From Alphaproteobacteria bacterium MarineAlpha3_Bin3 (GTDB taxonomy: Bacteria; Pseudomonadota; Alphaproteobacteria; Rhodospirillales; Casp-alpha2): a DNA stretch of 46,812 nt. The stretch spans positions 1 through 46,812 of the forward strand of contig PTLK01000001.1 in NCBI GenBank assembly GCA_002938075.1, in the 5' to 3' direction. The notes below the pieces were generated by a model. It had not been told where the DNA came from and ran no database searches. It worked only from the letters and a program-made list of their open reading frames with translations. How positions within the stretch are numbered: the first letter of the stretch is position 1; each line of letters starts with the position of its first letter. Shown here in pieces: positions 21,851 to 26,288 of the stretch. The position numbers were made by a program, and so were the translations under genes.

Positions 21851-23028
21851 GTATTAAGCCCGGCGGATGCCTTTTGGCCTTCGCCGGCCCCCGAGGCGAG
21901 GAATTCCTTGAACCGGAGCGCCACTTCGGGCGGCTTGACGCTCGGCCGTCCCAGGTCCTTCATCGAACCCGGCGCGATGCGCATATGAATCAGATGCGGG
22001 CCGCGACCCGATTGCGCCGATTTCAGCGCCTCGGCGAAACCGCCGAGGCCGTCGCAGCGGTAACTTTTCCGGTACCCGCAACCGGCGGCGACCCCGGCGA
22101 AATCGACCGATTGGGAAACCGTCGGCTGGCCGCCGGTGGAATCGTAGGTGCCGTTGTCGAGAACGATGTGGATGAGGTTTTGCGGCCCATAGGCGCCGAT
22201 GGTGGCCAGGGTCCCCATTTTCATCAACGCCGCGCCGTCACCGTCCAGCACCACCACCGGATTGCCGACGTTCAGCGCCACGCCCAGCCCCATGGCGGCG
22301 GCGCAACCCATGGACCCGACCTGATAGAGGTGCTGCCGCCGGTCGCCGAGGGTAAAAAGCTCGCGCCCGCATTTCCCCGTCGTGGCGATGATGCCGGCGT
22401 CATCGGCAACGCCTGACAGCACCGTTTCCAGGGCCTGCATTCGGGCCGGCAAGGGGCCTTGGTCCAACAGGTCGGCGGCCTCGCCCCTTGGCCGCGCTTC
22501 CGGCGCTGACCAAGAGTCCGCGCCGTCGTTGCCGACATCTCCTTTTTGCATGATGAAGGCGAACGGCAGGCCGGTTTTATCCATCGTCGCCCCGGCTTCC
22601 CCGATCGCCGCCGCGATTTCGGCATCCTCGGCCGGGAACGGCCGGTGCGGGACCTCCATCAGCTGCAAAAGGCCCGGCGTGATCCGGCCCATCAGCTCAT
22701 GCTGGGGCTCGTCCGTGAGCCCCGGCCCGGCCCGCCAGGTGACGATCAAAAGCGTCGGGATGCGGAACGGAAAGTTCAGCGACGTGATCGGGTTGACGGC
22801 GTTGCCGAGGCCGGAATTCTGGCACATGACGGCTGTCTTGTGCCCGGCCAGCCAGGCGCCCGACGCGATGGCCACGGCTTCGCCCTCGCTGGCCGCGGCG
22901 ACATAGGTCAGCCGCTTGTCGGTAATGGCGCCGTTGATCAGCGGCGTCAGAAAGGAACAGGGAACGCCGGTATAGAAATCGAACCCGGCGTCGAAACCCG
23001 AACCGAGAAACGCATCGGTAGCGATCAC
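21847..23028 (-). CDS. phosphonopyruvate decarboxylase (ThDP-dependent)
   Basis: [13 protein letters not shown]-terminus, [15 protein letters not shown], and the ThDP motif [12 protein letters not shown]...NN/DNG. Tail GRPSVKPPE is typical of Ppd. GTG at 23028 overlaps the upstream stop (GTGA). The longer ORF to 23079 is rejected. Confidence 0.8.
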
Positions 23029-23351
23029 AAGAACTTGCCCGCCCTGGTGAAGTCGGCGGCGTCGTCCACGTCGAGCCATTGCCCCGGCACGTAGACGGCG
23101 CGAATGGACGTTCCCTTGTCGATCAGGCGCTGCAGCAGGTCGAGCATGCTCGACATCGACAGGCCCGAGGCCCAGATGCCCTTGAACCCCGCTTCCTCGA
23201 CGATTTTCGCCGACAGCCCGTTGCGGGCCTCCATCAGGAATTCCAATTCCGGGGACGTCAACATGGCGCGCAAACGTGCCGCCTTCGACGGCGCCTCAGC
23301 CTGGCTGTCCCAGTTGTGGTCGGCTTTTCCCCGCATCGAAGAATCCCTCAA
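23025..23351 (-). pseudogene. PEP phosphomutase remnant: N-terminal ~68 aa of Ppm fused to the C-terminal ~40 aa of a nucleotidyltransferase-like sequence
   Basis: [41 protein letters not shown] matches the conserved Ppm N-terminus. The catalytic core that should follow is absent. The sequence instead continues as [22 protein letters not shown], which resembles the G.W.D(V/I)D...D tail of LicC-type NTases. Confidence 0.65.
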
Positions 23352-24341: not shown

Positions 24342-25196
24342 ATGGATCCACTCGTCCTTACCCTGGTCCTGACGGCGGCGGTCCTTCACGCGACCTGGAA
24401 CGCGCTGATCAAAAGCGGCGGCGACCCGTGGGTGCGCCTCGCCGTGGTCAATGGCGTCGGCATCGTTTGCGCGGCCGCGTGGCTGCCCTTCGTCGAGGCG
24501 CCGAATGCCGAGGCATGGCCGTTCATTCTGGGGTCGGTCGCCATTCATCAGGTCTATTTCGTCTGCGTCGCCCTGCAGTACCGTTTTGGGGACCTGTCCC
24601 ACGTCTATCCGATCTCGCGCGGCACCGCCCCGATCCTGGTCGCCGCCGCGGCGTTTATTTTCGCCGGTGAAACCCTGAGCCCGGCCGGCGCCGTCGCGGT
24701 GATCGTCATTTCCGCCGCCATCATCAGCTTGACGTTCGACAGCCGTTGGCCGACGGGAGAAGGCAAGGGCGTCTTCTTCGCGCTTTGCACAAGCGTCACC
24801 ATCGCCGTTTACACGGTGATCGACGGCCTCGGCGGGCGCACGGCGGACGATGTGTTCGCCTATATCGTCTACCATTTCCTGATTAACGGGATTCCCTTCG
24901 GGCTGCTGGTGATCTTCATGCGCCGGCGCGTTCTAGGGGCGACCCTGAAGGGGCACTGGAAGACCGGCTTCTTCGGCGGGGTTCTGGCCTTTCTGGCTTA
25001 TGGACTGGTGATCTGGGCGATGACCCTGACGCCGATGACCTATGTCTCGGCGCTGCGCGAGACCAGCGTCATCCTGGCGGCGCTGATCGGCGCCATCATG
25101 CTCGGCGAACCCTTTGGCCGGCGGCGCGTCATCGCCGCCGCCTGCGTCGCCTTCGGCGTCGTGCTGTTGCAATTCAGCAAGTACTCATTTTCATAA
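24342..25196 (+). CDS. EamA/DMT superfamily transporter
   Basis: 284 aa with 10 predicted TM helices in two EamA-like halves. Confidence 0.75.
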   Translation: MDPLVLTLVLTAAVLHATWNALIKSGGDPWVRLAVVNGVGIVCAAAWLPFVEAPNAEAWPFILGSVAIHQVYFVCVALQYRFGDLSHVYPISRGTAPILVAAAAFIFAGETLSPAGAVAVIVISAAIISLTFDSRWPTGEGKGVFFALCTSVTIAVYTVIDGLGGRTADDVFAYIVYHFLINGIPFGLLVIFMRRRVLGATLKGHWKTGFFGGVLAFLAYGLVIWAMTLTPMTYVSALRETSVILAALIGAIMLGEPFGRRRVIAAACVAFGVVLLQFSKYSFS

Positions 25197-25444
25197 TTCC
25201 ATGACGCTTAGGACGGCTTCCCGAAGTCATCCCGTTAGGCGCCGGCCCCGCCGTGATGCTGGACATCACAAGAGGGCGGCAACGCGGCCGGGGGCCTCGG
25301 GAAGCCGCCCGCGGGATCGCCTCTCCCGCCCCCTGGGTGCGTCGGGACCGCTTGCCGATGGCCCCGCATCGCCTGCGCGTCCCCTTCTGCCGAGGAAACG
25401 GGAGAGGCGATCCTACGGATCACGGAATTATGAAAGTGAGTACT
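25180..25444 (+). repeat. ~265-nt nested inverted-repeat element (structured RNA or MITE-like)
   Basis: Three helices found by hand pairing. Outer: 25180-25204 with 25420-25444 (21 contiguous pairs including one G.U, one mismatch, then 3 more pairs). Inner 1: 25214-25224 with 25297-25307 (11 bp). Inner 2: 25314-25328 with 25399-13 i.e. 25399-25413 (15 bp perfect). The left outer arm contains the EamA stop codon. Confidence 0.7.
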
Positions 25445-25475
25445 GGGGAGCGTGAAACGGCGGTCCGAGTGAGCG

Positions 25476-26288
25476 TTATTCGCCGGAGGCCTGGTCGATC
25501 CGGGGCCGTTCGGCTGCCAGCGTTTCCTCGGCGAAGAAATCGCTTACCAGCGGCATGATGATCTTTTCCGCACACAGCAGGTCGGAAGGGAAATCGATCT
25601 CGATCCAGGGGATGCCGGTGATGTCCTCGTAACCGAAGGTGCCCTCGGGTTCGGCCGCCAGCACGTCGCGCATGGCTTCTTCGTAGGTGACGTCACATTC
25701 GCCCCGCTCGATATAGACGCCGGCGGCATCGGCGATTTTGGCCGCCACATCGCCGGACATTTTCAAAAAACCCGGCCACTCGCCGATGTCGTCATAGTCG
25801 TCGGTGACTTTTTTCCCGAAATCGACCGGCTCGCCGTCGCGGATGCAAAGTTTCACCGGCTCTTCGCCGGGTTCGAAATCACGGTCGATGATAAAGCAAT
25901 TGTCGTGCACGGAACGAATGAGCCGGCTCATCATTTCCGGGGGATAGAGAACGTCCGAATCCATGAACAGGACGTCGTCGCCGCTGCGCAATTCCTCGCC
26001 CGCGGTCCACAGCGACACGATCGGGCCTTCCTTGAAACGGGGATTGAAAACGGAGCGGATAAACCCCCCGGAACCCCCGGGCGCAACTTTTTCGGCCTCG
26101 GCCAAAAGGTCTTCCTTGCGGTGACCGACGATCAGGACAAGCTCGTCGACGCCGAGCGCTTTCAGAATCCCGACATGGCGCTCGAGAAGGGTCTTGCCCT
26201 CGAAACGCAGCAAGGCCTTGGGCAAGCCGTCGTTTTGATCGCCATAAAGGCGTCTTCCAACGCCGGCGGCTAGCATGACCGCTTTCAT
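25476..26288 (-). CDS. LicC/PntC-like nucleotidyltransferase (putative cytidylyltransferase)
   Basis: MKAVMLAAGVGRRL...LPKALL N-terminal NTP-transferase signature. C-terminal W.EIDFPSDL. 270 aa. Lies 84 nt downstream of hpnA on the same strand. Confidence 0.75.
   Translation of the reverse strand: MKAVMLAAGVGRRLYGDQNDGLPKALLRFEGKTLLERHVGILKALGVDELVLIVGHRKEDLLAEAEKVAPGGSGGFIRSVFNPRFKEGPIVSLWTAGEELRSGDDVLFMDSDVLYPPEMMSRLIRSVHDNCFIIDRDFEPGEEPVKLCIRDGEPVDFGKKVTDDYDDIGEWPGFLKMSGDVAAKIADAAGVYIERGECDVTYEEAMRDVLAAEPEGTFGYEDITGIPWIEIDFPSDLLCAEKIIMPLVSDFFAEETLAAERPRIDQASGE

Follow-up and report, generated by a model that had tools for sequence, protein, structure and literature searches.

The nested palindrome at positions 25180-25444 of the window, the whole 46,812-nt stretch of DNA that was analysed, is very probably a non-autonomous DNA transposon (MITE) of the IS630/Tc1-mariner type, drawn from a large modular family of marine Rhodospirillales-like Alphaproteobacteria. 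In a preliminary description, three identities had been proposed for it: a MITE inserted into a gene's 3' end, a 3'UTR-derived structured sRNA or stabiliser, and a bidirectional terminator complex between convergent genes. The first is upheld by empty orthologous sites, dispersed copies, terminal repeats that one subfamily has in common with a complete IS630-family insertion sequence and TA/CTAG flanks in the family, and the sRNA/stabiliser and bidirectional terminator readings are unsupported. In kind, the element is an ordinary and known one, an IS630-associated MITE like RUP (Repeat Unit of Pneumococcus), and nothing in the results indicates a new kind of system. It apparently comes from an undescribed and unusually well-structured family, and no description of this family was found in Rfam, PLSDB or the literature searched.

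Structure of the element at 25180-25444

The whole MITE, AGT...ACT, spans 265 bp with no strand assigned; it is absent at orthologous loci and homologous sequences occur elsewhere. By the IS630 convention, the element proper (GT...AC) extends from 25181 to 25443 (263 bp), with the flanking dinucleotides AA at 25179-25180 and TG at 25444-25445. The left terminal inverted repeat AGTACTCATTTTCATAATTCCATGA (25180-25204) is the 5' arm of the outer helix and encodes K-Y-S-F-S and a stop codon, and the right repeat TCACGGAATTATGAAAGTGAGTACT (25420-25444) is the 3' arm. The three long helices paired by hand in the preliminary description were all recovered. The outer helix joins 25180-25200 to 25424-25444 through 21 pairs, 20 of them Watson-Crick and one T25188.G25436, followed by an A/C mismatch at 25201/25423 and three further pairs to 25204/25420; the arms, AGTACTCATTTTCATAATTCC and GGAATTATGAAAGTGAGTACT, are complementary to each other. 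The 11-bp helix (25214-25224 with 25297-25307) is perfect and grows to 14 nt at 93%, which forms the base (25211-25224 with 25297-25310) of an internal hairpin, P2, at 25211-25310, with an apical hairpin GTGATG-N5-CATCAC at 25253-25269. The 15-bp helix (25314-25328 with 25399-25413) is likewise perfect, lies within a 29-nt inverted repeat of 79% and closes a second internal hairpin, P3, at 25314-25413, with an apical hairpin CGATG-N6-CATCG at 25356-25371.

The nested palindrome is real and exceeds what chance provides. The arm sequence occurred in none of 100 shuffles of the window. For the 265 nt, the minimum free energy is -157.3 kcal/mol when the + strand is folded (z -9.5) and reaches -169.2 kcal/mol for the - strand (z -10.9); for neither strand did any of 200 shuffles do as well. 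The arms do stand out as AT-rich, at 29-33% G+C against 61% for the window; the core has 72%. The element is crossed by short G+C-driven ORFs only, and it is the single copy within the 46.8-kb window. The suggestion that G.U pairs favour a + strand RNA did not survive, as the - strand folds better and the family-wide ratio of wobble to A.C pairs is much the same on both strands (66/23 folding +, 68/21 folding -).

Insertion of the element at the end of the EamA gene

The element lies between two convergent genes, a + strand gene for an EamA-family transporter (24342-25196; PF00892) and a - strand gene for an NTP_transf_3 nucleotidyltransferase (25476-26288; PF12804), whose stop codon is 31 nt past the MITE right end. 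As described earlier, EamA ends within the left arm, which supplies the final 17 nt of the gene (25180-25196), including the TAA stop, and the protein reads ...QFSKYSFS*. The EamA orthologues end ...QFSQG[A/T/S]*, and hence the last three EamA residues have been replaced and the new stop codon comes from the element.

Empty orthologous sites were found at three loci (L005, L006 and L007), with flanking DNA ~92-94% identical and the convergent genes ~20-30 nt apart. Where the empty site has CA between ...TTCAGC and GGGAGCGTGA, the window has A, the 265 nt and G (267 nt), and the net gain of 265 nt equals a 263-bp element plus a 2-bp duplication. The empty site, GC-CA-GG, does not include TA, so that no target duplication can be read for the window copy, whose flanks are AA and TG; 0-, 2-, 3- and 4-bp models each need at least two substitutions. 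Two distant EamA orthologues (L008 and L010) end ...AGC TAG at the window's insertion point, where CTAG can thus arise; that an ancestor with a TAG stop would have supplied a CTAG target for the window copy is speculation. The odd C-terminus of EamA and the 280-bp spacer behind it are best explained by transposon insertion rather than by a regulatory RNA.

All ten contigs with an identical neighbouring nucleotidyltransferase carry the element, and neither an empty allele nor read-through of an empty site was found in four DNA runs, which indicates that the insertion is fixed in the population. Across 11 orthologous copies of the insertion, variable sites fall on paired positions in 20 cases and on unpaired positions in seven, a proportion equal to the paired share of the element (194 of 265), and evolution of the window copy looks neutral. 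At L089, identity is 94.7% for the element against 97.9% for its flanks; this faster divergence is explained in part by exchange with a copy beside rmuC.

Reciprocal junctions between the window copy and the rmuC-side copy were observed at L086:7237-7521, where the EamA flank is joined to the right flank of the rmuC locus, and at L134:3345-3640, where the left flank of the rmuC locus is joined to the nucleotidyltransferase flank. Either some strains carry a genuine inversion between the two inverted copies, or the junctions are assembly chimeras formed at the 265-bp repeat. As the repeat breaks contigs and makes such junctions in these abundant deep-sea Alphaproteobacteria, MAGs of the clade should be checked at these elements for chimeras or real inversions. 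At another locus, L106, the upstream ORF (857-1441) ends as EamA does, with its last 25 nt and stop codon inside a MITE terminus (1417-1441).

A dispersed family with a covarying core

The copy search proposed in the preliminary description, made with the arms and the whole element, returned dispersed copies at other loci, and identical 21-mer ends were present in the related MAG ARS16 and in marine metagenome contigs. Copies were found on three contigs of ARS16. A second locus in the same population adjoins rmuC, with the element at full length on one contig (L092) and with an internal deletion on two (L091 and L087). Other copies contain an inserted 33-nt hairpin (L001 and L090, the former with a P3 variant CGCCTGTCGCG/CGCGACAGGCG), lie at a contig end (L002) or are 5'-truncated (L003, L088 and L094). 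A conserved core 23-mer was detected at 37 loci in eight MAGs. With queries from several subfamilies, at least 58 copies or fragments at 49 loci were catalogued in eight related marine alphaproteobacterial MAGs, including tandem and nested copies, and most family copies are intergenic. In the four DNA runs, the depth of the element was 2-3 times that of its flanks, and loose ends led to the rmuC locus and to another subfamily. No match to the element was obtained by blastn against 72,556 plasmids, and scans of viral contigs with the W terminus and the core found no element. Three loci that matched in the scan with the W terminus (L004, from Niallia, and L085 and L095, whose sequence was inspected) had no blastn match to the element and were set aside as chance.

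The termini differ among subfamilies, yet each is self-complementary, all have the form AGT...ACT, and a common three-helix core is kept. At least nine terminus types surround this core. The window copy has the W type (AGTACTCAYTTTCATAATTCC), and the others include B (AGTACTYMCTTKCACGATTTCGCG), G (AGTGTCCTGTCCCAGAGATTCG), P (AGTACCCTCTATCATAA) and C (AGTGCCCCCTATCATAG) types, two further subfamilies with AGTGGATAGACTCAGAC and AGTGGCCTATGTCAACC, and a more distant type beginning ATACCAAGG. In the family alignment, AGT and TCA (positions 12-14) are conserved in the left repeat, and the remaining positions covary with the right arm.

The structure predicted by RNAalifold on an alignment of 13 representatives has 97 consensus pairs, 59 of which show changes on both sides, so that the covariation sought in homologues is indeed present. 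In the alignment, 93.9% of cells are paired, against 78.3% after shuffling and 38-44% with a slid partner, and the covariation score is 0.45, against 0.17 for shuffled alignments (0/500 as high) and 0.08-0.11 with a slid partner. Compensatory changes occur in 19 of 37 pairs of helices 4-6 (P2), which are 92-99% paired, and in 18 of 27 pairs of helix 8 (P3). In the architecture common to the family, an outer stem encloses two long hairpins, both of which end in an invariant GATG-N5/6-CATC hairpin. An extra ~60-nt G+C hairpin module, which is also found alone, sits at various positions in many copies, and element size ranges from 265 bp up to ~410 bp with extra modules.

Two observations concern the modular make-up of individual copies. 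A smaller G+C-rich hairpin repeat of ~33-60 nt with the core CCGGGGGGACACCCCCC is nested at differing positions in many MITE copies, sometimes in tandem (L109:7130-7260, L111, L126, L121 and L001:4466-4500), and occurs solo at L099:930-1020; it looks like an independent REP-like repeat family. The copy at L126:2702-3088 is chimeric, G-type at its left terminus and B-type at its right, which shows that subfamilies recombine through the shared core.

The core keeps its sequence while the outer termini swap, and it is better conserved than the termini, the opposite of the usual MITE pattern. Hence, simple mobilisation in trans is not by itself a full explanation. Most likely, the hairpins either serve transposition, in that they bring together the two ends of a short element, or are produced by mutation that corrects palindromes (template-switch correction of quasi-palindromes). 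An alternative to which we give a small but real chance is that the covarying three-helix core is a functional structured nucleic acid, either an end-pairing device acting in cis or an RNA or DNA cargo spread across phyla by IS630 termini. With its subfamilies, covariation, nested insertions and likely IS630 partner, the family is a clean natural data set for the question of why some MITEs keep an elaborate fold.

IS630-type termini, target sites and alternative explanations

With the G-type terminus as query, 83 loci spread over many phyla were obtained. Among these, five complete elements of 1157-1193 bp with G-type termini AGTGTCCTGTCCCAGAGATTCG were found (L175, L202, L144, L174 and L142), together with a sixth of 999 bp (L168) in which the transposase match is fragmented. 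The terminus of the G-subfamily MITEs is identical to the right end of these ISs at 22 of 22 nt. The complete elements encode a protein of 364-376 aa with Pfam DDE_3 and HTH domains, and the 364-aa protein matches the NCBIfam model NF033545, IS630 family transposase, with 266 bits (cutoff 100). Ends of this kind and CTAG flanks are also found in an IS, annotated in RefSeq as IS630-family, on a Caballeronia plasmid. The transposase ORF of the complete IS630-family elements does not include a stop codon, and TAG is made up of the duplicated TA and the G of the target (L175:7642-7644 and L207:1278-1280); the transposase stop codon of IS870 of Agrobacterium is likewise completed by the target.

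MITEs of 99-272 bp with the same IS630 termini were found at six loci in Acidobacteriota, where a recognisably similar 271-nt interior is present, and at seven loci in other phyla. The Acidobacteriota MITEs and the alphaproteobacterial family have in common their length, the GGTCTTGCGAGGT/CCTCGCAAGACC helix and two GATGC...GCATC hairpins. Scans of genomes, metagenomes and viral contigs for an IS630 element with W-type termini returned only MITE copies and chance matches, and the W-type termini match the IS ends at about half the positions, as judged by eye. No IS630 transposase was detected by tblastn in the window or in the examined loci of the alphaproteobacterial MAGs, and a search of the examined loci for an autonomous element, based on 13-mer inverted repeats separated by 0.6-4 kb, yielded nothing beyond G+C-rich pairs attributable to chance.

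Insertion of IS630 elements takes place at TA, which is duplicated, and IS630 itself prefers TA within CTAG (PMC2170065; its reference Tenzen & Ohtsubo 1991). All six complete or near-complete ISs are flanked as ct/AGT...ACT/ag, which can be read as C-TA-[GT...AC]-TA-G. T precedes the element end in 56 of 65 non-family G-type ends, 34 of 47 family G-type ends and 12 of 21 B-type ends. By hand count, TA is present at both flanks in ~9 of 23 complete family copies; nearly all have T or A at one flank at least, and T or A is missing at one flank in about one third of family copies. Comparison of L123, where a P-type copy is interrupted by a G-type copy, with the uninterrupted P copy of L106 places the insertion exactly in the CTAG of the latter, and the 2-bp length arithmetic is exact. 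Several MITE copies abut TAG stop codons. As CTAG is about six-fold under-represented in the window (25 observed, 165 expected), its enrichment at the flanks is not compositional. At the level of the family, insertion is therefore at TA, preferably within CTAG.

In the mechanism that these data suggest, a putative IS630-family DDE transposase supplied in trans would bind both terminal inverted repeats, excise the element and integrate it at TA, preferably within CTAG, with duplication of the TA. For the window's W subfamily, a cognate IS630-family transposase would be the mover. In the window lineage, one copy landed 6-9 nt before the stop codon of EamA and became fixed, leaving EamA to end inside the left repeat with KYSFS* in place of QGA*. 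The nested hairpins are a trait of the family, kept by compensatory change on both strands.

Other modes of movement were considered. The palindromic junction CT/AGT...ACT/AG on its own fits a TA duplication, a CTAG duplication or blunt insertion, IS5-related MITEs that duplicate CTAG/YTAA exist (PMC3189936), and conserved hairpins are typical of single-strand transposition; the element might thus be a lookalike moved by an IS5-type transposase with a 4-bp CTAG/YTAR duplication or by a hairpin-dependent single-strand system (REP/RAYT or IS200/IS605-like). However, the inner AG...CT is invariant and the outer flank bases vary (TT, CC, AA, GG), unlike a 4-bp direct duplication, and the transposase encoded by the complete elements whose termini are identical belongs to the IS630 family rather than to IS5 or Y1. 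The IS5-like reading of the flanks, and an IS110-like reading with a CT core, were both rejected on these grounds. The family has perfect terminal inverted repeats of 21-27 bp, which to our knowledge are not a feature of IS200/IS605 or REP elements, and movement by any such system is extremely unlikely.

The RNA readings rest on the fold and on sparse transcripts. In one metatranscriptome contig (25068-25218), EamA sequence continues into the left arm, and fragments of diverged family members (matches to 25366-25403) occur in two metatranscriptomes; the RNA contigs are few, of low depth and too sparse for transcript ends. The element lies exactly between convergent genes, both of its strands fold strongly, its insertion is fixed, and known MITE transcripts have effects on the genes transcribed together with them (PMC3049150, PMC10969869). 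On this basis, the hairpin, transcribed from either convergent gene, could have been exapted to protect 3' ends, to be cut by RNase III or to act as a roadblock/insulator between the two genes. This is improbable, since no terminator-like stem with a U-tract was called in or at the element (the sole call, 25786-25772, is inside the neighbouring gene), neither arm is followed by a U-tract (the sequence reads GGGGAG on + and TGCTGA on -), and family copies occupy convergent, tandem and divergent spacers in both orientations. By hand count, ~8-9 copies downstream of genes are sense and ~10 antisense, which rules out a bias in gene orientation. Moreover, the variable sites at the locus give no sign of selection on the fold, and the element diverges faster than its flanks. 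A strand-specific structured RNA gene, a + strand 3'UTR-derived sRNA with the repeats as its paralogues, would account for the strong covariation in all helices, the conserved loop motifs (the two GATG-N5/6-CATC hairpins and CTGCCGAGGAAAC) and the diverged fragments in RNA data. This is very unlikely, given that structure and wobble counts are symmetric between strands with the - strand more stable, that copies lie in both orientations relative to neighbouring genes, and that promoter-like matches in the element are at chance level and terminator signals no better. The Rfam scan that had been proposed gave no support, with no match better than E = 0.9 for 24800-25900 (Rfam 15, E-value limit 10) and none that reached the gathering score in seven loci containing other subfamilies, and the IS630 termini and TA/CTAG flanks point to mobility at the DNA level. 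The hairpins probably have no host RNA function at the window locus.

Read as an IS630-type MITE, the element is closest to RUP, which is thought to be moved in trans by IS630-Spn1. As compared by description, both are non-coding, multi-copy and tightly folded, with paired terminal inverted repeats like those of the IS630 family (PMC3049150), but RUP, with 107 bp, is AT-rich and occurs in a Gram-positive host, whereas the window element has 265 bp, a core of 72% G+C, two covarying internal hairpins and many terminus subfamilies. The resemblance to ISs of the IS630/IS870 type lies in the AGT...ACT termini of the G subfamily, identical over 22 nt, and in the CT/.../AG flanks, which fit a TA duplication within CTAG as in IS630 (PMC2170065). 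Unlike these ISs, the window element has no transposase gene, and its interior is unrelated to theirs. The Correia elements of Neisseria and the ERIC/IRU elements of enterobacteria are also short, dispersed, palindromic MITE-like repeats that form long hairpins in or near transcribed regions, Correia elements with a TA duplication. They differ in size (~100-160 bp), hosts and sequences, and it is for those families that effects at the RNA level have been shown experimentally. Correia elements are reported to have 26-bp inverted repeats (PMC3049150). The Rickettsia palindromic elements (RPEs) provide another case of an alphaproteobacterial palindromic repeat that adds residues inside a coding sequence (PMC10969869), but RPEs lie in frame within genes and are translated through, whereas the window element gives only five C-terminal residues and a stop codon.

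Elsewhere in the window, a 108-aa ORF on the - strand (23025-23351), upstream of a phosphonopyruvate decarboxylase-like gene, has a weak Pfam match. It looks like the N-terminal third of PEP mutase, with a tail resembling the C-terminus of a nucleotidyltransferase, and may be a truncated or fused ppm in a phosphonate cluster.
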